From the sequence record MK373774.1: a stretch of 64,000 bases of DNA; one strand, given 5' to 3'. The DNA is from Escherichia phage vB_EcoM_WFL6982. The notes under the pieces are model-generated. The model saw only the letters and a program-made list of their open reading frames with translations. It ran no database searches and had not been told where the DNA came from. Positions 3,635-31,105 of the stretch are shown here, in pieces; position 1 is the stretch's first letter, and every line of letters begins with the position of its first letter. The position numbers and the translations under genes were made by a program.

Positions 3635-4918
3635 ATGAGTAAAATCCAAAAATTATTGCGTGAATCTACAACGTCTACTAGCAACTCAATTGGTCGCCCA
3701 AATCTCGTTGCTTTGACTCGCGCTACGACTAAATTAATATATTCTGACATTGTAGCAACACAAAGAACTAATCAACCTGTTGCTGCTTTTTATGGTATCA
3801 AATATCTTAACCCAGATAACGAATTCACATTTAAAACTGGCGCTACTTATGCTGGTGAAGCTGGATACGTAGACCGAGAAAAAATTACTGAGCTCACAGA
3901 AGAATCAAAAGTCACACTAAATAAAGGCGATTTTTTCAAATATAATAATATCGTCTATAAAGTGTTAGAAGATACACCATTTGCAGATATTCAAGAAAGT
4001 GATCTAGAATTAGCTCTTCAGATTGCAGTCGTTCATTTAAAGGTACGGTTATTTTCAGATGCAGCGGTAACAAGCAAATTTGAAAGCTCTGATAGCGAAA
4101 TTTCTGATGCAAGATTCCAGATTAATAAATGGCAAACTTCAGTCAAATCTCGTAAACTTAAAACTGGTCTCACGGTTGAATTAGCGCAAGATTTGGAAGC
4201 GAATGGATTTGATGCCCCTAACTTCTTAGAAGATTTGCTTGCTACTGAAATGGCAGATGAAATTAATAAAGATATTCTTCAGTCTTTAATTACTGTATCG
4301 AAACGTTATAAAGTTACTGGAATTACTGACACCGGATTTATTGACTTGAGCTATGCATCCGCTCCAGAAGCAGGTCGTTCGTTATATCGAATGGTGTGTG
4401 AAATGGTATCACACATCCAAAAAGAGACAACTTATACTGCAACGTTTTGTGTAGCCTCAGCTCGTGCAGCTGCTATTCTTGCTGCTTCCGGTTGGTTAAA
4501 ACATAAGCCAGAAGATGACAAGTATCTTTCACAAAATGCTTATGGATTCTTGGCAAATGGATTACCTCTTTACTGCGATACCAACAGCCCGTTAGATTAT
4601 GTTATTGTGGGTGTTGTAGAAAATCTCGGCGAAAAAGAAATTGTAGGGTCCATCTTTTATGCTCCATACACTGAAGGAGTGGATTTAGATGACCCGGAAC
4701 ATGTCGGTGCATTTAAAGTTGTAGTTGATCCGGAAAGCTTGCAACCGTCTATTGGATTATTGGTTAGATATGCTTTATCAGCAAATCCTTACACAGTAGC
4801 AAAAGATGAAAAAGAAGCGAGAGTAATTGATGGCGGGGACATGGATAAAATGGCGGGACGTTCAGACTTGTCTGTTTTACTCGGTGTTAAATTGCCTAAA
4901 ATTATTATAGATGAATAA
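3635..4918 (+). CDS. 24: head vertex protein gp24
   Basis: 427 aa; TATAAATA at 3600-3607; gp23 paralogue position. Confidence 0.9.
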   Translation: MSKIQKLLRESTTSTSNSIGRPNLVALTRATTKLIYSDIVATQRTNQPVAAFYGIKYLNPDNEFTFKTGATYAGEAGYVDREKITELTEESKVTLNKGDFFKYNNIVYKVLEDTPFADIQESDLELALQIAVVHLKVRLFSDAAVTSKFESSDSEISDARFQINKWQTSVKSRKLKTGLTVELAQDLEANGFDAPNFLEDLLATEMADEINKDILQSLITVSKRYKVTGITDTGFIDLSYASAPEAGRSLYRMVCEMVSHIQKETTYTATFCVASARAAAILAASGWLKHKPEDDKYLSQNAYGFLANGLPLYCDTNSPLDYVIVGVVENLGEKEIVGSIFYAPYTEGVDLDDPEHVGAFKVVVDPESLQPSIGLLVRYALSANPYTVAKDEKEARVIDGGDMDKMAGRSDLSVLLGVKLPKIIIDE

Positions 4919-4920
4919 AC

Positions 4921-4950
4921 AAAAAAAAAGGGACCGTAAGGTCCCTTTTT
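4921..4950. terminator. bidirectional terminator between gene 24 and rnlB (A-run, GGGACC-GUAA-GGUCCC hairpin, U-run)
   Basis: Hairpin flanked by aaaaaaaaa and ttttttt. Confidence 0.65.
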
Positions 4951-4954
4951 TTCG

Positions 4955-5953
4955 TTATGATACTAATTCAATCCATGCAGGACGCAGAACATCTTGCACC
5001 ATTCGGACTAATTCTTTCTTAACAAGATTCGGATTATCAGATGATGTTAATACAATACCTTCACGAGAAGTTTCTTCCAGAATATCTTGAACAGTCAATC
5101 CCATCACTTTGCCAAAAGATTTTGGCGTTACAGCCCCAATCTTAGAAATAACATTATTAACACGATTTAATGTAACATAACAAGCTAGAACATCAAGCAA
5201 GTTTTTGTCAATTTCGGTTAATGGAACCTGAGTTTTAATAGGCTTATCAGACTTTTTCTTTTCACTGAATTTAGAGTTCTTGCACTTAATAGCTACACGA
5301 GTACCGTTTGGCAGCCATTTAGGGAAACAAGGCTTCAGAACATAACCTTCTGCCGTATTATCGCCAATAACATTAGCATCAAATACACAATTATTTGCTT
5401 CGACAAGGTCTTCTGACGCAGTAGCATTATAAGCGGCTAAGACGGAATCAAGGTCATTTGGAATCATGATAAGAGAATCAAATGTTCCACGACCAAGCAT
5501 TGGTGCCATTTTAAAACCGAATTCATTACAGAAATCTTGCATTTCGTAATCGGTCAAATACGTATTATCACCACTTTCTGTATTGATAAGGATATCGAAC
5601 ACATAAAAATCTTTTTCACCGTAGTCAACACCTTTCTGGATTCCACCACCAGCAAATTCACCGAATACTTGATATGATACGGCTCGAGCTGTGTACATGA
5701 ATTCCTGAACGGCTTTAATAGCTTTATCATACTTCTTGAGTACGATTTCATAACCATAAAAATCTTCTGCTGGAAGAATAGGGCCTGTGCGCTTGGCGCA
5801 TGTGACGTTGCCACGTTCAATTATTAACGAGAAGTTGGTCCCATGGATTTTCTCACGTGCTACCCAAACACCAGTAGTCAAACCATTAGTGTAGAGTTTT
5901 TCAATAAACTTAGAGTTGTAGTGGTTTTCAAGACTGCTGTATTTCTTAAACAT
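4955..5953 (-). CDS. rnlB: RNA ligase 2
   Basis: 332 aa, N-terminus [14 protein letters not shown] as in T4 Rnl2; nucleotidyltransferase KxHG-like motif (EKIHGTN). Confidence 0.9.
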
Positions 5954-20720: not shown

Positions 20721-22213
20721 TATAAACCTGTCTGGGACCACGGTCCAAATACGTCTTCAAACGAATCCGCTTCTGTTTTATCAAAACGGAACCCTTTAAT
20801 AATTGGGAGGAAAATACCTACAGTGCCTTCACGTCCTTTAGAATGAACCCAACCATTGCATTCACAATCAGCAATACGTCCAATCAATTTACCTTCACGA
20901 GCTTCGGTCATTAATCGTTCACGGTCCAAATCATGTCGCTCATCTAAAGGAATAAGAACCTTTACACCATCAACTGTTTTATGAGTTGTATCTTTAAACC
21001 CTGAACCACAATCGGTTGTAATACGACGACAACGTGATACGAGTTCGACACCACCTAATTTGTTAGGGTCTTTAGAGTGTTCATAGTATCCTACAACTTC
21101 TAAAGCGATATCAATAACTTCTTTAAATTTAATTAGGTTCTTAGAACGTTTGTTTTCCCAATATGAATCACGGTTTTTAAGGATAATACCTTCAAGACCT
21201 TGGTCAACATATTTTTTATAAACCACTTTAGCTTCGTCAAGATTACGAACTAACTGATTTTCAATTGGCTCAATTCGTTTAAAGCCTTCAGCCATATTTT
21301 CAAGAGCAGCAAAACGAACATCGTATTTCTGACCTTTAATTTTGCCATCAGAATAGACTTCATCTAAAGGAACATAGTCCCAGGCTTGAAGAACCATACC
21401 TTCAGCTTCTTTAGGAGAAATAGTCCCTTGAAGAGATTTATTTGCTAAACCGTTTGAAGTGCTACGGTCCGCAACTTGTACTTCTTCGGATTCTTCATTA
21501 TCACCAAATAAGAACGACAGGTCATTTCCTGAGCTCACAGCCTTTTTAATATCAAATGAATGGTAAACTAATTCACCGTCGATTAAAACCCCATTAGGGT
21601 GTCTTTCACGAGCTTCTTTAGTCATTTCCATTAGTTCATCCGCTAATAGAGTAAGACCATGATATTCGTTGCCGGCACGAGAAAAGAATTGAACACCATC
21701 ATCGCGAACTTCAGCGAAACAACGAGCACCATCTGCTTTTAATTGGGCAAATGCGGGCCATTTAATATTTTTAGTAATCAATTTCTCGTCATATGCAGAT
21801 GCTAACATCTGTGGTTGCAATTGAATAAGTCCAGGCCACACCTTATTCGCGATAGACACTGAAGCACCTACTTCAAGATCGCGCATCATTACACGACGAA
21901 GGACTTCTACATCATCAGGTTTACCATCAGCGATATAACCCATGAGCTCTTTAATTGCAGCATTACCAGTGAGTTTACGAGTGGCTAATGTGAACTCAAT
22001 AAAATCCAACATGTCATCTAATTCAAGAAGACCATACGCTTGAGACCTTTCACCTGGTCCTGGCCATTTCTTAATATAATACTGGATACCACGTGCATAT
22101 GTTAAACGATACACACGTTCAAGTAATTTGTTGTCCTTATTTTTCTTAAGGATTTCCTGTTTTGTTTTAGTAGAACCAATCGCAGCTATTTGGTTTAAAA
22201 TATCTAAAATCAT
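20720..22213 (-). CDS. 30: ATP-dependent DNA ligase gp30
   Basis: 497 aa; ligase motif I KADGAR; recalled similarity to T4 DNA ligase. Confidence 0.92.
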   Translation of the reverse strand: MILDILNQIAAIGSTKTKQEILKKNKDNKLLERVYRLTYARGIQYYIKKWPGPGERSQAYGLLELDDMLDFIEFTLATRKLTGNAAIKELMGYIADGKPDDVEVLRRVMMRDLEVGASVSIANKVWPGLIQLQPQMLASAYDEKLITKNIKWPAFAQLKADGARCFAEVRDDGVQFFSRAGNEYHGLTLLADELMEMTKEARERHPNGVLIDGELVYHSFDIKKAVSSGNDLSFLFGDNEESEEVQVADRSTSNGLANKSLQGTISPKEAEGMVLQAWDYVPLDEVYSDGKIKGQKYDVRFAALENMAEGFKRIEPIENQLVRNLDEAKVVYKKYVDQGLEGIILKNRDSYWENKRSKNLIKFKEVIDIALEVVGYYEHSKDPNKLGGVELVSRCRRITTDCGSGFKDTTHKTVDGVKVLIPLDERHDLDRERLMTEAREGKLIGRIADCECNGWVHSKGREGTVGIFLPIIKGFRFDKTEADSFEDVFGPWSQTGL

Positions 22214-22479
22214 TTGATGTCCTCGATTTTGGTTACGGTTCTATTATAAGCCACTTCATCTAGAAGCGATTTCAGCGTTTTCTGATAAGTTGTAATCCAT
22301 TTACCGAGTCCTTCAACATAGTATTCTGAAATGTAGATGAACCCTTGTTCAACACACTCTTTAAATATTTCTGCGTCTTTTACTGAACGAAACAATGGCC
22401 AGTCTCGAAAGAACATGTTAACGTGACCGTAGTCACGTGTGGTATTTTTGCCATCTGTAATATCATGAACTACAAACAT
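22210..22479 (-). CDS. hypothetical protein (30.1 position)
   Basis: 89-aa ORF, overlapping stops/starts in operon. Confidence 0.5.
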   Translation of the reverse strand: MFVVHDITDGKNTTRDYGHVNMFFRDWPLFRSVKDAEIFKECVEQGFIYISEYYVEGLGKWITTYQKTLKSLLDEVAYNRTVTKIEDIK

Positions 22480-22488
22480 AATTAACCC

Positions 22489-23313
22489 TTAACAATTTAT
22501 AGACCAAGTCCATTTAGACGAATCTAAAGGAAAGTTTTGAATCGTCCACCACGGCTGCATATCAGTTGGTCCTGGGGTTCGCCAGGTATATGGAGTACGT
22601 GTTGTCGAGGGGCCACCAATTTGATTAGGCCATGCACCTGGACTTGTTGCACCAGATTCTTTAAGCAAATCCGCCAATCGTTTTAAAAGGTCTTCACGAT
22701 CTGAATCTGAATTATTCTTAGGCAGAACCAAACGAGATTCAATATCATCCCACGTGTGTACACGTTGTGCAGTACGAGGAATGGCATCACGTTCACCACG
22801 AGCCAACCAATAAATCGGTACATTAAGAATTTCTGCCGCATGGTCACAATGATGAGCTAAATCGTCAACGTAACAAATTACGTTATATTTTGTTTTAGCT
22901 AGTTCGAATAATTGTTCCTTTGAAGAATCATGACCACACATCATTACTTCAGAGAAAGCGCCTGGGAACAAAGCATTCAAATTAAATTGTCTATTCAATC
23001 GAGCATCAATTGAATCACCTAGCGCCGTCACGGCTACAAAATTATAGTCTTCTTTTAGTTTATTGATAACTCGAAGAGCATCAGAATAAGGCGCTAAGTA
23101 ACGAATAAAATCAGAGCTATTATATTTTTCTATTAATTGTTTACCAAGGTTATCGTCGGTGTTGAACAGTTTACCAGGAGAAATAAATTTTTCGTCCTGA
23201 ATCATTTTTAAAATATGTTCTAATGGAAGGTTATATTTTTGGGCAAAATAAGGAAGTCCAGATTGCCAGCTTAAACATACACCATCAATATCAGTCAAAA
23301 TAGTAGGCTTCAT
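22489..23313 (-). CDS. HAD-superfamily hydrolase-like protein (30.2 position)
   Basis: N-terminal DxDGV motif (LTDIDGV) and downstream DD motif typical of HAD phosphatases. Confidence 0.5.
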   Translation of the reverse strand: MKPTILTDIDGVCLSWQSGLPYFAQKYNLPLEHILKMIQDEKFISPGKLFNTDDNLGKQLIEKYNSSDFIRYLAPYSDALRVINKLKEDYNFVAVTALGDSIDARLNRQFNLNALFPGAFSEVMMCGHDSSKEQLFELAKTKYNVICYVDDLAHHCDHAAEILNVPIYWLARGERDAIPRTAQRVHTWDDIESRLVLPKNNSDSDREDLLKRLADLLKESGATSPGAWPNQIGGPSTTRTPYTWRTPGPTDMQPWWTIQNFPLDSSKWTWSINC

Positions 23314-23777
23314 AAAGAGTCTCTTAATAGGTTTAACACGTCAATAAATTCATCTTCAGTTAGTATTGTATCATCTTTTGTTAGGTGGCTGGCCATGCTG
23401 TGCTTCAAAATTTTTCCTTTAGAGGCTTGTAAGGCATCACGAAACCCCTTGTTTTGGATCGCGGCTTCAAAATATGCATTTGTGTATAATTCTTTCCATG
23501 CTTCGGAGTATCTTGAAAATGGAACTCCTAACCAGAAGAGAGTCCCACGGTCCTGAGCTCTTGCGTAAGACCTTCCAGCTTGCTGTGCAGCCAATCCAGA
23601 CAACCAAAATATACGTCTTTGTTGTTCAACATTTTTCACCTTACATCCTTGGAGAAATCCTTCAAGACCTCCGAATTGAATACCATCCATAACAAAAGGC
23701 CATTGAGCAAAGTTACTTAATGCACATGACGGCCATTTGAAATTACTTCTTATTTCTAATTCAGACATCTTTAACAC
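23310..23777 (-). CDS. NADAR / YbiA-like (DUF1768) domain protein
   Basis: Motif pattern LSNF..PF..DG..F...E..Q..K resembles the NADAR family. Confidence 0.45.
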   Translation of the reverse strand: MLKMSELEIRSNFKWPSCALSNFAQWPFVMDGIQFGGLEGFLQGCKVKNVEQQRRIFWLSGLAAQQAGRSYARAQDRGTLFWLGVPFSRYSEAWKELYTNAYFEAAIQNKGFRDALQASKGKILKHSMASHLTKDDTILTEDEFIDVLNLLRDSL

Positions 23778-26992: not shown

Positions 26993-27049
26993 CTTATTTC
27001 CTTGTTGTTTGACGATAGATTAATAATACCATACTATTCGTAAAGCATA

Positions 27050-27358
27050 TTACATAAGAAGCAAACGTTCTACCGGAGTACCATCAACCGAAATTACTTT
27101 ATCAAGGCGGAAAGAACGCCACTGACCTAACTTGGTATCGAATGCTCGAACTGATTCACGAGGTTCAGAACGAACTTCTGATGCCGGATTGTTATTTTCA
27201 TATTTGACTTCAAGTTCATCGCGAGAAGCAAACATAGTGCGTACCTCACCGTTAGCCTTTTCAAATACAACACAATGAACGCCTACAGACAGAATAGTTT
27301 TAATACGTTCACGAAGAACCATAGTTTCTTGTTCAGTTAAAATCATATTATTCACCAC
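27050..27358 (-). CDS. hypothetical protein (31.1 position)
   Basis: 102-aa ORF, synteny. Confidence 0.5.
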   Translation of the reverse strand: MVNNMILTEQETMVLRERIKTILSVGVHCVVFEKANGEVRTMFASRDELEVKYENNNPASEVRSEPRESVRAFDTKLGQWRSFRLDKVISVDGTPVERLLLM

Positions 27359-27929
27359 AAAAGTTTCGGATTTGTTCCCAATTCAGAGAACGAAGATTAT
27401 TACGAGAGTACTGAATTACTTCAATACCGGCTTGTTTTAGAATGTCTGCCCAATTTTCAGGAGATCGGTCGTATAATTCTGCATATACAACCTTTTTAAT
27501 ACCTGACTGTGTAATAGCTTTAGTGCAATCAGGACACGGAGAAAGCGTCGTATATAACGTAGCACCTTCAATAGAATTACCTTTACGAGCTGCAAATAAA
27601 ATTGCATTCAGTTCAGCATGGATTTCATTATTAGCAGACCATGCACTATGAGCGGCCCGATGTTCTTTAGCCAAAACAAAATTATCCACCCGTCCAAATG
27701 CTGTAGTGCCTTCTTTATGCCCAGCAACGATGACCGGGCTTGGTTTATTCTTCAACCAACCGTTTTCGGATGCATGTTCGCAACAGTTTGTACCACCTGA
27801 AGGAGAGCCATTATAACCTGTAGAAATAATGCGTCCATCTTTTTCAATGACGGCGCCAACTTTCCATGAACAACATTTTGATTCTTGAGAAATCAGATAT
27901 GCAATCTGAAGGTATGTGCTAGCTTTCAT
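27348..27929 (-). CDS. cd: dCMP deaminase
   Basis: 193 aa; zinc deaminase motifs HAELNAI and SPCPDC. Confidence 0.9.
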   Translation of the reverse strand: MKASTYLQIAYLISQESKCCSWKVGAVIEKDGRIISTGYNGSPSGGTNCCEHASENGWLKNKPSPVIVAGHKEGTTAFGRVDNFVLAKEHRAAHSAWSANNEIHAELNAILFAARKGNSIEGATLYTTLSPCPDCTKAITQSGIKKVVYAELYDRSPENWADILKQAGIEVIQYSRNNLRSLNWEQIRNFCGE

Positions 27930-28921
27930 TATTGAACCTTATTAATATAAGTTAACAGCTCTTTAGTTTGTTCCCAACTGATGCACGCATCGGTAACGGA
28001 AACGCCATAGGACATATTATCAGAAATTTTTTGATTTCCTTCATGTAGGAACGATTCTATCATAATTCCTTTGACCAAATCATTAGCTGCTAAATTTTTA
28101 CCAATACCAATTTGATTGCTATAATGCCCATCAGCGTTTGCATGGCTACAGTCAACCATTACATAATGATTCAGACCTACTGCCCTTGCTTTGTTAGAAG
28201 CTTCTTGAATATCAGAAGAATGATAGTTCGGGCCGTTGGTCCCGCCACGCAATACGATATGCGTATTCTGATTACCTTCAGCTTCAACAATGCCTACAGT
28301 ACCATCGACGTCCATACCCATATACCGATGAGGCCAGGCGGCACTATACATCGCGTCTATAGCTACTTTAATAGAACCATTGGTTGCGTTCTTGAAGCCT
28401 ACGCACATCGGTAGACCTGAAGCAATTTCACGATGTGTCTGACTTTCAGTCGTACGGGCGCCAATAGCAACCCATGAGAAAATACCAGAAAGATACTTAA
28501 TCGTGAATGGGTCTAATACTTCAGTTGCTAATGGAAGTCCCATACGTAGAAGTTTACGACACAATGTTCGTGCAACTATAAGACCGTGGTTCATATCAAA
28601 ACTTCCGTCAAGATATGGATCATTTACAAGACCTTTCCAACCTACGGTAGTTCGAGGCTTTTCAAAATAAACGCGCATCACTAACAGAACATTAGGAAGA
28701 CGAGTTTGAAGTTCAGCCAGACGTTTGCCGTATTCAACAGCAGCAATAGGGTCATGAATTGAACAAGGACCTACAACGATAAGTTTGCGTGGGTCTTCAC
28801 CATTCATAATCGAATTAACTTGTTCGCGATGAGAAGCCACTTGTGATGCGTAAGCTTCCGACAAAGGAATAATCTCAGCCAGTTCTTTTGGAGAAATAAG
28901 TTTTCCGACGACAGGTAACAT
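27929..28921 (-). CDS. 3-deoxy-D-arabino-heptulosonate-7-phosphate (DAHP) synthase, AroG/AroF/AroH class
   Basis: 330 aa; long collinear matches to E. coli AroG (GPCSIHD, VMRVYFEKPRTTVGWKGL, GARTTESQ.HRE.ASGL, KVAIDA, IVLRGG, MIESFL.EGNQ); RBS; TAATG-coupled to cd. Confidence 0.85.
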   Translation of the reverse strand: MLPVVGKLISPKELAEIIPLSEAYASQVASHREQVNSIMNGEDPRKLIVVGPCSIHDPIAAVEYGKRLAELQTRLPNVLLVMRVYFEKPRTTVGWKGLVNDPYLDGSFDMNHGLIVARTLCRKLLRMGLPLATEVLDPFTIKYLSGIFSWVAIGARTTESQTHREIASGLPMCVGFKNATNGSIKVAIDAMYSAAWPHRYMGMDVDGTVGIVEAEGNQNTHIVLRGGTNGPNYHSSDIQEASNKARAVGLNHYVMVDCSHANADGHYSNQIGIGKNLAANDLVKGIMIESFLHEGNQKISDNMSYGVSVTDACISWEQTKELLTYINKVQ

Positions 28922-28929
28922 AACAATCC

Positions 28930-29055
28930 TTAGGAGATATAAACAGATTCTGATTCAACAATACCTTTAACCGGATTAGACAGGCTAAGTTGGTAGTGCT
29001 CAGATTTATGACCATTCTCGATAGTAATGAGATAGCTCTCATTATAGTGTTCCAT
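28930..29055 (-). CDS. hypothetical small protein (cd.x)
   Basis: Internal ATG at 29055; overlaps upstream gene by 14 nt; weak RBS. Confidence 0.3.
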   Translation of the reverse strand: MEHYNESYLITIENGHKSEHYQLSLSNPVKGIVESESVYIS

Positions 29056-29278
29056 ATACTCGAGTTGCTTCAACAAGACCATCACTGCATAATTTAAGAT
29101 TAGTAATTTGGTCACCATCTTTAGGATTAACGATTATGAGAAAAGAACGTGGAGATTCTTGAATAACTCGTAATGTTGCATCTTGGAAACGTTCAGACAC
29201 TTTATTGATGAGTGCTTGAGCAAATTCTTTTACTTTAATCTGAAATTCGTGTACTGTAATTGGGTTTTCACTTAGCAT
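29042..29278 (-). CDS. hypothetical protein (cd.x)
   Basis: 78-aa ORF with RBS GAGGAAA and early promoter at 29303-29336. Confidence 0.5.
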   Translation of the reverse strand: MLSENPITVHEFQIKVKEFAQALINKVSERFQDATLRVIQESPRSFLIIVNPKDGDQITNLKLCSDGLVEATRVYGTL

Positions 29279-29302
29279 TTCTATTTCCTCATTTGTTGGT
29301 AG

Positions 29303-29336
29303 AGTTATAGTATCACAACTCCACCATGTTGTAAAC
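29303..29336 (-). promoter_or_regulatory. early promoter
   Basis: gtaaac at 29331-29336. Confidence 0.45.
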
Positions 29337-29338
29337 CA

Positions 29339-29614
29339 TTAAATTGCTTTGCATTCAATTTTTTGTGTACCGAAATTGATATCACATTGGATAACTAAAT
29401 CGCCGTCAAGATCAAATACCACGATGACGTGTGCAGACCCAGGGAGAAGAGTAATAGCAATAGAATCTACTTGGTCTGGGAGCAAAGCATTGAGTACATG
29501 AGTTACTTGAGCATGAACTCTGAGTTCGGCTGCATTATCAAGCACTTCAAACATATTATTAGCAATAATCTGACTGAAGACTACCTTTACAATTTCAGAA
29601 TAAGTTGGGAACAT
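29339..29614 (-). CDS. hypothetical protein (cd.x)
   Basis: 91-aa ORF in an operon of small early genes. Confidence 0.45.
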   Translation of the reverse strand: MFPTYSEIVKVVFSQIIANNMFEVLDNAAELRVHAQVTHVLNALLPDQVDSIAITLLPGSAHVIVVFDLDGDLVIQCDINFGTQKIECKAI

Positions 29615-29621
29615 AATTACC

Positions 29622-29846
29622 TCAGTGCACAGTATTTACTTTAACTCGAACAACAAATCGCTCGGTTGGTTCACCTACAGGAACAAACTCTACATGATAT
29701 TCACCTTTGTAACGAGTATTCAGATCATTACGAATTCCTGCGAGTTTGTTGATTAATGTAGGACTCATATTAAGTCCCACTAGTTTACGAAGCATTTTGT
29801 ATGCTTCATCTTCGATTTCATGATGTTTATCGTACATAGTTTTCAT
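29622..29846 (-). CDS. hypothetical protein (cd.x)
   Basis: 74-aa ORF. Confidence 0.45.
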   Translation of the reverse strand: MKTMYDKHHEIEDEAYKMLRKLVGLNMSPTLINKLAGIRNDLNTRYKGEYHVEFVPVGEPTERFVVRVKVNTVH

Positions 29847-30018
29847 TTAACCATTCAATTGCCTGGTCGACGTTATCAAATATACCGCCGTCCAAACGTT
29901 CTTCATGCTCATAGTCCAGCACATCAATACCGAACTGTCCATTTACTAAAGGCCAGGCAACAAACAAATATTCTTTATGCTGTTCGATGGCCTCAATCAC
30001 TTCATATAATCGTTTCAT
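29827..30018 (-). CDS. hypothetical protein (cd.x)
   Basis: 63-aa ORF abutting the pseT stop. Confidence 0.4.
   Translation of the reverse strand: MKRLYEVIEAIEQHKEYLFVAWPLVNGQFGIDVLDYEHEERLDGGIFDNVDQAIEWLNENYVR

Positions 30019-31105
<1,087 letters not shown>

Follow-up and report, generated by a model that had tools for sequence, protein, structure and literature searches.

A phage type I-alpha DAHP synthase with an altered inhibitor-site signature in the pseT-cd interval of T4-like phages

The window analyzed here, a 64,000-nucleotide stretch of Escherichia phage vB_EcoM_WFL6982 (MK373774.1), matches Escherichia phage vB_EcoM_WFK (Mosigvirus) at 100% identity. Within the interval bounded by pseT and cd it carries an ORF of 330 aa with an ATG start, labeled hypothetical in vB_EcoM_WFK, that encodes a DAHP synthase. 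The features of this interval are as follows:

27348..27929, minus strand: cd, dCMP deaminase, 193 aa, directly downstream of the DAHP synthase gene (Pfam dCMP_cyt_deam_1, 1.7e-26)
27914..27932, no strand assigned: proximal copy of an imperfect 19-nt direct repeat, at the cd start (coding strand ATAATGAAAGCTAGCACAT)
27927..27931, minus strand: TAATG stop/start overlap of the DAHP synthase gene and cd (read from the sequence)
27929..28921, minus strand: phage type I-alpha DAHP synthase CDS, 330 aa (PF00793 at 6e-76, TIGR00034, PHROG 5045, AF2 model, residue analysis)
28927..28931, minus strand: AAGGA resembling a Shine-Dalgarno sequence, 5 nt ahead of the DAHP synthase start codon (read from the sequence)
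28930..29055, minus strand: degenerate cd.2-like C-terminal fragment between intact cd.2 and the DAHP synthase gene (phrog_15876, phrog_1504, DUF7320)
29027..29045, no strand assigned: distal copy of the 19-nt repeat, at the cd.2 stop (coding strand ATAATGAGAGCTATCTCAT)
29042..29278, minus strand: cd.2 homolog, 78 aa, DUF7320 (Pfam 7e-35, phrog_1504 3e-37)
29307..29335, minus strand: sigma-70-like site TTTACA-17-TACTAT with TG extension, in the cd.3/cd.2 gap (sequence scan)
30019..30918, minus strand: pseT, polynucleotide kinase/phosphatase, upstream boundary of the syntenic interval (HAD_PNKP 5.7e-59 and AAA_33)

The TAA stop of the DAHP synthase gene (27931..27929) and the cd start codon ATG (27929..27927) have one A in common, and from this overlap the two genes are probably translationally coupled. 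The gene has a GC3 of 0.30, like the adjoining phage genes, compared with 0.50 for aroF. The translation contains GPCSIHD, VMRVYFEKPRTTVGWKGL, GARTTESQTHRE, KVAIDA, IVLRGG, and MIESFLHEGNQ, and its N terminus, counted up to the conserved Pro19, is 8 residues shorter than that of AroG, 9 shorter than that of AroF, and 7 shorter than that of AroH. An earlier note on this DNA had described the ORF at 27929..28921, its TAATG overlap with cd, these motifs, and an N terminus about 8 residues shorter than that of AroG, all of which we find as described. The same is true of the nucleotide-metabolism neighborhood that it reported: cd lies downstream, and for a genome at 99% identity RefSeq annotates alc, rnlA, denA, nrdB, nrdA, td, and frd further upstream of pseT. 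The flanking proteins resemble those of T4 (71.5% identity for Cd and 74.9% for PseT), and cd.2 is collinear with the cd.2 of both RB69 and T4. Within the 32 kb of annotation inspected around it, the DAHP synthase gene is the only shikimate gene, so that any benefit to the phage would depend on host enzymes.

Family models place the protein far above their curated cutoffs: Pfam DAHP_synth_1 (PF00793) is matched at E=6e-76 with 255.3 bits (cutoff, 25.5), NCBIfam TIGR00034 (aroFGH) with 430.6 bits (cutoff, 173.2), and PRK12755 with 456.4 bits (cutoff, 343) over residues 6 to 327. In addition, residues 1 to 330 align to profile positions 8 to 337 of the 341 in PHROG 5045 (E=1.9e-182), a family annotated as phospho-2-dehydro-3-deoxyheptonate aldolase in the category “moron, auxiliary metabolic gene and host takeover.” The NCBIfam matches at E<=0.001 comprise aroFGH-type models only, with no KdsA model among them. 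The earlier note had called the enzyme AroG type; this stands insofar as the protein is of the AroF/G/H type, but it resembles AroF more than AroG, with E. coli AroF (6agm, E=1e-105) as its closest solved relative, and it scores below the AroG-specific NF006723 equivalog cutoff (365 versus 568 bits) and the AroH-specific NF009396 subfamily cutoff (388.8 versus 463 bits).

On the alignment to AroG, whose numbering is used throughout, the catalytic metal ligands C61, H268, E302, and D326 are all kept in the window protein, as they are in each listed phage homolog. The same holds for R92, K97, P98, R99, T100, G163, A164, R165, K186, and R234, the PEP/E4P-binding residues of the AroG structures. 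The ORF is thus a full-length type I-alpha (AroF/G/H-type) DAHP synthase with its catalytic residues intact, and such a protein is probably catalytically competent. An AF2 model (pLDDT 90.9, pTM 0.91) has helices at 11 to 17 and 22 to 39 and strands at 198 to 203 and 209 to 214, the latter forming a beta6a/beta6b hairpin, and Foldseek superposes it on N. meningitidis and E. coli DAH7PS structures with TM scores of 0.94 to 0.95 and an rmsd of about 1.7 Å. The predicted fold is a (beta/alpha)8 barrel that carries the beta6a/beta6b hairpin as an insertion and a helical extension at its N terminus.

The gene is found in more than 200 records, 139 of them near-identical and about 70 more distant, and is kept in 139 of approximately 150 Mosigvirus-type records. 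We observe it in the pseT-cd interval of Mosigvirus, Winklervirus, Marfavirus, and Bragavirus, as well as of two metagenomic T4-like contigs, and the locus is the same in the T4-like genomes examined (JK45, CHI14, VAC36, and PM2). Surveyed at this locus, T4-like genomes carry the gene in many cases, and it is absent from T4, from RB69, and from a small number of further Mosigvirus isolates; RB69, moha, JK42, JK36, and mar005P1 lack it, and the gene is therefore dispensable. The phage DAHP synthases are monophyletic (100/100 NJ bootstraps; stem, 0.16), cellular homologs are at most 55% identical to the phage enzyme, and overall identity within the phage clade falls to 57%. From genus to genus the enzyme has diverged in step with cd and pseT, so that loss from T4 and RB69 is as likely an explanation as gain by the phages that carry it. 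The earlier note had read the gene as a gained auxiliary metabolic gene; a novel gain peculiar to this phage is not supported, since at least four T4-like genera, and metagenomic contigs as well, carry the gene at the same place between pseT and cd. We read it as part of an old lineage, specific to phages, that is settled between these two genes in many T4-like phages of Enterobacterales. Against JK45, dN/dS is 0.44, a value that is uninformative with only 10 differences, and in pairs more distant than JK45 the synonymous sites would be saturated.

The segment absent from RB69 is 1.1 kb long and includes the degenerate cd.2-like fragment, which is part of an ORF (28930..29118) whose residues 22 to 62 match phrog_15876 (7e-32), phrog_1504 (the cd.2 family; 2e-5), and DUF7320 (2e-6). 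In a three-way junction comparison, the two repeat copies, identical at 15 of 19 bases, coincide with the two edges of this segment, and the blastn alignments share 19 nt at their break points. The T4 record bears out the statement of the earlier note that the T4 interval between pseT and cd holds only the small ORFs cd.1 to cd.5. T4 cd.1, which occupies the corresponding place, was considered as a DAHP synthase remnant and rejected, as it has no similarity to the enzyme (E=12).

The sigma-70-like site between cd.3 and cd.2 is a weak candidate for an early promoter feeding cd.2, the DAHP synthase gene, and cd. Promoter and terminator counts from a scan of the region equal the shuffled expectation, and early expression is therefore argued from T4 synteny only, the T4 record noting an early promoter between cd.2 and cd.3. 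By this analogy, the DAHP synthase gene would be transcribed together with the early nucleotide-metabolism genes.

The phage clade departs from cellular enzymes at the site where aromatic amino acids bind. Comparing 26 phage-like with 98 cellular sequences, we observe K or R at position 151 in 26/26 phage-like sequences versus Q in 98/98 cellular ones, P at position 180 in 26/26 versus S in 97/98, I at position 150 in 25/26 versus P in 91/98, and G at position 155 in 25/26 versus D in 95/98. The stretch before Pro19 measures 8 to 12 aa in phage-like sequences, leaving no counterpart to D6/D7, and 16 to 53 aa in cellular ones. In the window protein, nothing aligns to AroG positions 2 to 9, so that the D6/D7 segment is absent, and I150, K151, P180, and Y209 replace the canonical P150, Q151, S180, and F209; the canonical aromatic-amino-acid inhibitor site made up of these elements is thus lacking. 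Feedback regulation is a feature of individual isozymes and not a requirement for catalysis.

An unbiased scan of 350 columns for at least 90% conservation within each group, with a different residue in each, returned seven: 150, 151, 155, 156, 180, 209, and 223. Five of these (P150I, Q151K, D155G, S180P, and F209Y) belong to a list of 13 literature positions for allosteric or feedback-resistance sites, an enrichment (Fisher p=6e-7; p=0.008 against a second cellular set) that rests on one stem branch, so that the 26 sequences are not independent events. Published work on the E. coli enzymes links several of these positions to inhibition: P150L confers complete feedback resistance, S180F, F209A, and F209S are likewise resistant, and Q151 and S180 (Q152 and S181 in AroF) contact the inhibitor main chain (PMC9529685), while D6 and D7 belong to the Phe site, where double substitutions yield feedback-resistant AroG (PMC6520568). 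The natural P150I, Q151K, S180P, and F209Y differ from the assayed P150L, S180F, and F209A/S.

The conserved change of this pocket suggests that host feedback control is no longer effective on the phage enzyme. The earlier note had proposed a deregulated enzyme from the shortened N terminus; with Q151, S180, P150, D155, and F209 replaced across the phage clade, the case is now stronger than the N terminus alone would make it. We also observe that the changed pocket residues are strongly conserved within the clade and not decayed, and that the beta6a/beta6b hairpin is kept in the AF2 model, a pattern that would fit a repurposed effector site equally with a silenced one.

On balance, we favor the reading of an active, early-expressed DAHP synthase that escapes inhibition by Phe, Tyr, and Trp. 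The enzyme would condense PEP and erythrose-4-phosphate to DAHP, the first committed step of the shikimate pathway, which PMC9529685 and PMC11845039 describe as the step controlling carbon entry into the pathway. With the Asp6/Asp7 segment gone and P150I, Q151K, D155G, S180P, and F209Y fixed, this clade specifically has lost the canonical inhibitor site, and because that site is lost the phage enzyme is predicted to ignore Phe/Tyr/Trp feedback. In the infected cell, where host gene expression is off and host AroF/G/H are throttled by end products, it would keep carbon flowing to chorismate via the remaining host shikimate enzymes. This flux would supply aromatic amino acids and/or cofactors made from chorismate (pABA/folate, for example), the latter being the rationale of the earlier note and plausible from what is known of the pathway.

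The altered pocket may instead have been repurposed, with I150, K151, G155, P180, Y209, and A223 binding another effector (a chorismate-pathway intermediate, folate, or dCTP/hm-dCTP) and placing the enzyme under a phage-relevant signal; we regard this as fairly unlikely. The substituted residues are almost invariant in the clade down to 57% identity, where drift would be expected after simple loss of function, Q151K introduces a positive charge at the place normally taken by the main chain of the inhibitor with its carboxylate (contacts in PMC9529685), the hairpin is retained, and the gene is probably coupled to cd, which, according to the T4 record note, encodes an enzyme under allosteric activation by dCTP and hm-dCTP. 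However, the sequence allows no inference of a ligand, the phage protein is missing the N-terminal stretch by which the site is closed across the dimer, and loop 146-156 adjoins active-site and dimer-interface elements, so that its conservation may be structural. That such a new effector site couples shikimate entry flux to a phage signal (a pyrimidine nucleotide, folate, or a chorismate-derived metabolite) is unlikely; if true, it would tie chorismate/folate supply to the adjacent cd/td/frd/nrd nucleotide program. An ordinary, feedback-regulated extra copy of a host-type, Tyr-sensitive AroF that merely adds enzyme dosage is less probable still: E. coli AroF is indeed the nearest solved relative, Gly at position 211 and Pro at position 147 are as in AroF, and several GenBank records read “aroF, Tyr-sensitive,” yet the Tyr main-chain contacts Q152 and S181 are K and P in the phage protein, AroF residues 2 to 10 are without a counterpart, and no cellular enzyme is more than 55% identical. 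The phage-like codon composition likewise indicates that the gene is no recent host copy.

KDO8P synthase, which uses arabinose-5-phosphate, also belongs to PF00793, and a shift in substrate to arabinose-5-phosphate or another phosphosugar could feed, for example, arabinosyl-hmC DNA modification and not the shikimate pathway. The Mosigvirus RB69 carries arabinosyl-hmC, related groups encode arabinose-5-phosphate-isomerase-like proteins (PMC6024577, PMC8056088), and the distribution of the gene resembles that of the putative arabinosylation genes. Against this, the PEP/E4P residues, including KPRT, and the four metal ligands are as in AroG, KdsA models are missing from the NCBIfam matches, RB69, in which ara-hmC was demonstrated, is without the gene, and the literature examined on these DNA modifications never mentions a DAHP synthase gene. 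The arabinosyl-hmC link was accordingly dropped as the main reading, given the gene's absence from RB69, the silence of that literature, and the unchanged E4P/PEP residues, and we rate a substrate shift the least probable of the alternatives. That the gene is a nonfunctional passenger or relic, playing no part in infection, is also very improbable: dispensability in RB69 and several natural isolates, together with the dN/dS of 0.44 from 10 differences to JK45, would suit it, but the ORF is full length with its own ribosome-binding site, every catalytic residue is kept down to 57% identity across more than 200 records, and the gene is retained in nearly all Mosigvirus-type records (139 of approximately 150).

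The gene itself is no discovery, being already present in RefSeq and PHROGs; RefSeq annotates it as “phospho-2-dehydro-3-deoxyheptonate aldolase” in T4-like phages such as JS09, HX01, APCEc01, PhAPEC2, CHI14, PM2, and KLB31. In Klebsiella phage KLB31 the DAHP synthase was noted in silico as an AMG in 2025 (PMC11845039), and no mention of such genes was found in the main text of the ocean-AMG paper cited there for them. Our literature search found no functional study (enzymology, expression, or phenotype) of any phage DAHP synthase, and public records and PMC11845039 offer a name or a generic AMG hypothesis only, without a description of the remodeled regulatory site that we could find.

Metabolic engineers deregulate DAHP synthase at these same residues to overproduce aromatics. 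If the phage clade is naturally feedback insensitive, enterobacterial T4-like phages would override host end-product control by the engineers' own trick, and the clade would provide a ready-made, evolution-tested deregulated enzyme. In addition, the presence or absence of the gene among near-identical Mosigvirus isolates supplies natural gene-plus/gene-minus pairs, which allow a direct measure of the value of an amino-acid/cofactor AMG to a coliphage.

Among known systems, the T4-like family in PHROG 5045 and RefSeq is the same gene family as the window ORF, with no difference in kind. A second phage-borne type I-alpha DAHP synthase, also with an intact catalytic set, occurs in Aeromonas phage HJ05 and its relatives (79- to 84-kb phages). 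It has A, H, P, P, and V at positions 150, 151, 155, 180, and 209, sharing S180P with the T4-like lineage, but it is a separate lineage, with 38% identity to the window protein, 37 aa before Pro19, and a genome that is not T4-like. Once the overall divergence of this protein is taken into account, its allosteric positions are not significantly enriched in changes (p=0.12), and convergence at these positions is suggestive only. Two further phage hits of low identity were excluded: contigs named “Acinetobacter phage MD-2021a,” which carry cobS, cobT, and cobU and look bacterial, and an unverified fecal “Bacteriophage sp.” contig of a different subfamily.

Like E. coli AroF (PDB 6agm/6agl), the window protein is of type I-alpha, aligning over residues 8 to 327 with identical metal ligands and PEP/E4P residues, and Pro147 and Gly211 are common to both. 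Unlike AroF, it is 26 residues shorter, with AroF residues 2 to 10 missing and short deletions at AroG positions 289-293 and 315-316, shows phage-like codon usage, and carries the equivalents of Q152K, S181P, P151I, and D156G. Neither the Tyr-contact residues Q152 and S181 of AroF nor the N-terminal segment around N8, a residue with a role in Tyr inhibition, are found in the window protein. With the Phe-sensitive E. coli AroG (1kfl, 1qr7) it shares 47% identity, a TM score of 0.95, and, by prediction, the reaction chemistry. The phage protein departs from wild-type AroG at the positions of the feedback-resistant variants P150L, S180F, F209A, and D6G-D7A, but, unlike in engineered AroG, the changes are natural, several occur together, and the residues are others: I and not L at 150, P and not F at 180, and Y and not A or S at 209.

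Between pseT and cd, we find a 330-aa open reading frame (ORF) encoding a full-length type I-alpha DAHP synthase. Its TAA stop and the ATG of the next gene share one base (TAATG on the coding strand), and the interval between cd and pseT also holds homologs of cd.2 (DUF7320) and cd.3 (DUF7355), plus two small ORFs. In the T4 record, an early promoter is noted between cd.2 and cd.3.

Features of the pseT-cd locus in the window
Immediately downstream of the synthase, minus strand: cd, dCMP deaminase (Pfam, 1.7e-26)
27914-27932, no strand assigned: proximal copy of an imperfect 19-nt direct repeat, at the cd start
27929..28921, minus strand: DAHP synthase ORF, 330 aa, ATG start (ORF reading)
5 nt upstream of the synthase start, minus strand: AAGGA ribosome-binding site (direct sequence reading)
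28930-29055, minus strand: second, degenerate copy of the cd.2 C-terminal region, within the segment absent from RB69
29027-29045, no strand assigned: distal copy of the 19-nt repeat, at the cd.2 stop
29335..29307, minus strand: sigma-70-like site, matching the place of the T4-noted promoter and statistically unremarkable
30019..30918, minus strand: pseT, polynucleotide kinase/phosphatase, 299-aa ORF (HAD_PNKP, 5.7e-59)

The synthase runs in the same direction as the early genes of nucleotide metabolism, and in a 99%-identical genome RefSeq annotates alc, rnlA, denA, nrdB, nrdA, td, and frd further upstream. An earlier note, made from the sequence alone, had described a 330-aa ORF overlapping cd as TAATG among cd, td, frd, and nrdAB; our ORF reading of the minus strand bears out the overlap, Pfam confirms cd and the RefSeq annotation the other genes, and every peptide motif quoted there is found in the translation. 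Shigella phage JK45 (NC_054940), a 99%-identical relative, is filed as Tequatrovirus despite its Mosigvirus-like sequence in this region; its nrdB annotation consists of two pieces with an intron-like DNA endonuclease gene between them (21490-23759 of the locus).

The note's identification of a DAHP synthase is correct. The protein matches Pfam DAHP_synth_1 (6e-76), scores far above the cutoff of the NCBIfam aroFGH equivalog TIGR00034 (430.6 bits; cutoff, 173.2), and passes PRK12755 (456.4 bits; cutoff, 343), while missing the cutoffs of the AroG-specific (365 versus 568) and AroH-specific (388.8 versus 463) NCBIfam models. The top solved structure is Escherichia coli AroF (6agm, 1e-105), followed by Neisseria meningitidis DAH7PS and E. 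coli AroG (7e-92), and an AlphaFold2 model with 55 homologs as input (pLDDT, 90.9; pTM, 0.91) superimposes on solved DAH7PS chains with a TM of 0.94 to 0.95 and an rmsd of ~1.7 Å. When aligned to the three E. coli isozymes (AroG numbering), the protein keeps all four metal ligands (C61, H268, E302, and D326) as well as the PEP/E4P residues R92, K97, P98, R99, T100, G163, A164, R165, K186, and R234, and the same positions are intact in each phage homolog listed. The phage clade also differs from cellular enzymes at K273 (G in the window protein) and by short deletions at AroG-equivalent positions 289-293 and 315-316.

Over window positions 27000-31000, the sequence matches that of Escherichia phage vB_EcoM_WFK, a Mosigvirus, at 100% identity; the record of that phage names the ORF "hypothetical protein." A tblastn search of 50,697 phage records with the window protein gave matches in 212: 139 at ≥95% identity, from E. 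coli and Shigella Mosigvirus-type phages; 47 at 60 to 80%, from phages of Klebsiella, Serratia, Enterobacter, Edwardsiella, and Erwinia; and 26 below 60%, from Proteus phages and some doubtful records. In many of the 212, the protein is already named phospho-2-dehydro-3-deoxyheptonate aldolase, DAHP synthetase, or "aroF." The protein also matches PHROGs family 5045 (1.9e-182; category "moron, auxiliary metabolic gene and host takeover"), and DAHP synthetase has been listed, with a generic hypothesis, as an auxiliary metabolic gene of one Klebsiella Kanagawavirus (2025, PMC11845039). In a full-text literature search, no phage DAHP synthase turned out to have been studied biochemically or genetically, so the gene is catalogued rather than functionally studied. 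One record, CAKLQH020000056.1 ("Acinetobacter phage MD-2021a"), has aroF beside cobS, cobT, cobU, and a phosphoglycolate phosphatase gene; its contigs resemble a bacterial chromosome, and the apparently mislabeled record inflates the count of "phage" DAHP synthases.

The same note had suggested that the gene was gained, T4 having only small ORFs cd.1 to cd.5 at this place. This agrees with the T4 record, and T4 cd.1, which takes the place of the synthase, is unrelated to it (E = 12). A gain peculiar to this phage is not supported: the synthase also lies between pseT and cd in Serratia phage CHI14 (Winklervirus), Klebsiella phage VAC36 (Marfavirus), Proteus phage PM2 (Bragavirus), and two metagenomic T4-like contigs that carry the deepest-branching members. 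Across those genera, synthase identity to the window (58 to 68%) tracks that of its neighbors cd (58 to 80%) and pseT (45 to 66%); T4 cd and pseT are 72 to 75% identical to the window's. Codon composition is phage-like, with a GC3 of 0.30 for the synthase, 0.26 to 0.32 for cd and pseT, and 0.50 to 0.57 for E. coli aroF and aroG. The closest cellular protein is at most 55% identical, and a neighbor-joining tree of 123 sequences groups the 25 phage-type proteins into one clade (100/100 bootstraps) with a long stem. The gene is an old resident of the locus, present in public annotation and catalogs for many T4-like phages, and its simplest history is a single old acquisition, a long stay, and later losses; the lack of the gene in T4 may likewise reflect loss.

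Within Mosigvirus, approximately 139 records carry the synthase and 11, from the six isolates RB69, mar005P1, JK42, JK36, moha, and ECO111 5-P, share the same gene-less junction. The stretch missing from RB69 is exactly window 27933..29026; the 1.1-kb segment is bounded by the two 19-nt repeat copies, whose coding-strand consensus, ATAATGA[A/G]AGCTA..CAT, duplicates the cd.2-stop/cd-start junction. The segment looks like a cassette moved in or out via recombination between short homologies among related phages, and the synthase is dispensable, since natural isolates exist without it. In the RB69 reference (NC_004928, 7660-8252; homologous to window 27348-27929), cd is annotated as ~170 aa, not 193 aa: near the C terminus a short out-of-frame stretch, "ILKPSWY*," stands where the window reads "ILKQAGIEVIQY," the expected residues lie in the +1 frame, and the original frame then resumes; the cause is either a set of frameshifts that compensate each other or faulty sequencing of the reference.

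At the regulatory site, the phage enzymes depart from their cellular relatives. We aligned the window protein with 120 database homologs and the three E. coli isozymes (26 phage-type, 98 cellular), and the two groups split cleanly.

Regulatory positions in phage-type and cellular DAHP synthases
Residues before Pro19: phage-type, 8-12; cellular, 16-53
D6/D7: phage-type, nothing aligned; cellular, present (E, N, D, or Q)
P150: phage-type, I 25/26; cellular, P 91/98
Q151: phage-type, K 25, R 1; cellular, Q 98/98
D155: phage-type, G 25/26; cellular, D 95/98
S180: phage-type, P 26/26; cellular, S 97/98
F209: phage-type, Y 25/26 (one gap, a fragment); cellular, F 97/98

In an unbiased scan of 350 AroG columns for those ≥90% conserved within each group yet different between groups, only 150, 151, 155, 156, 180, 209, and 223 pass, and five of these seven are on a 13-position literature list of inhibitor-site and feedback-resistance positions (Fisher P = 6e-7). 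A second comparison, with 117 cellular enzymes from a separate retrieval, gives a similar picture: of 104 conserved columns, only 9 are changed in the window protein, and 150, 180, and 209 are once more among them (P = 0.008). In AroG, P150L and D146N abolish Phe inhibition, and S180F, L175D, L179A, F209A, F209S, and V221A are also resistant; Q151 (Q152 of AroF) and S180 (S181) bind the inhibitor main chain, and D155 forms a stabilizing salt bridge (PMC9529685). D6 and D7 are part of the Phe site, and their double substitutions yield feedback-resistant enzymes (PMC6520568). With these changes coexisting with an untouched catalytic core, the phage enzyme probably lacks the canonical response to Phe, Tyr, or Trp, and the earlier suggestion of a deregulated enzyme, based on its shorter N terminus, is considerably strengthened by the clade-wide changes at allosteric residues.

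A second, unrelated lineage, Aeromonas phage HJ05 and three database relatives, is 38% identical to the window protein. HJ05 (OQ594355), a 79-kb non-T4-like phage, encodes an independent, unannotated 387-aa DAHP synthase at 3899-5062, and relatives are found on contigs as long as 84 kb. The HJ05 enzyme retains the catalytic residues, has noncanonical A150, H151, P155, P180, and V209, and shares S180P with the window clade; at these positions the cellular proteins nearest to it are canonical. Enrichment of its changes at allosteric positions is not significant (P = 0.12) because the protein is very divergent overall, so this lineage is suggestive of feedback-site remodeling in phage enzymes. 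K273 and Q288 are changed in the HJ05 lineage too.

We propose that the synthase is expressed early together with cd, as the promoter noted in T4 suggests, and that it provides a predicted DAHP synthase activity that end products cannot turn off. The six remaining pathway steps are host-encoded. Because DAHP synthase controls how much carbon enters the pathway (PMC9529685, PMC11845039), such an activity could keep chorismate production going in a cell with inhibited isozymes of its own that are no longer replaced once host expression is shut off. What the phage gains may be aromatic amino acids for its protein burst, pABA/folate for the reactions of td, frd, and hm-dC as the note proposed, or something else; a position next to cd would fit a folate role.

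The inhibitor pocket could instead be a repurposed effector site, since the changed residues are conserved inside the clade and the AlphaFold2 model keeps the beta6a/beta6b hairpin, but we consider this unlikely. An extra AroF under normal Tyr regulation is somewhat less probable still, given K and P at Tyr-contact positions and the missing N terminus. That the gene is a passenger without function is very improbable, with every catalytic residue conserved in >200 records, and the least credible reading is a shifted-substrate enzyme supplying arabinosyl-hmC (a DNA modification) or another sugar pathway: the E4P/PEP residues are unchanged, the NCBIfam search gave no match of the type of KdsA (KDO8P synthase), and RB69 makes arabinosyl-hmC without the gene.

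What the predicted feedback-insensitive synthase adds to public annotation is the clade-wide, position-specific remodeling of its feedback site, and it therefore represents a natural variant of a well-known kind of enzyme: compared with AroG, in which one substitution (or a double one at D6/D7) suffices for resistance, the phage clade combines changes at several such sites.
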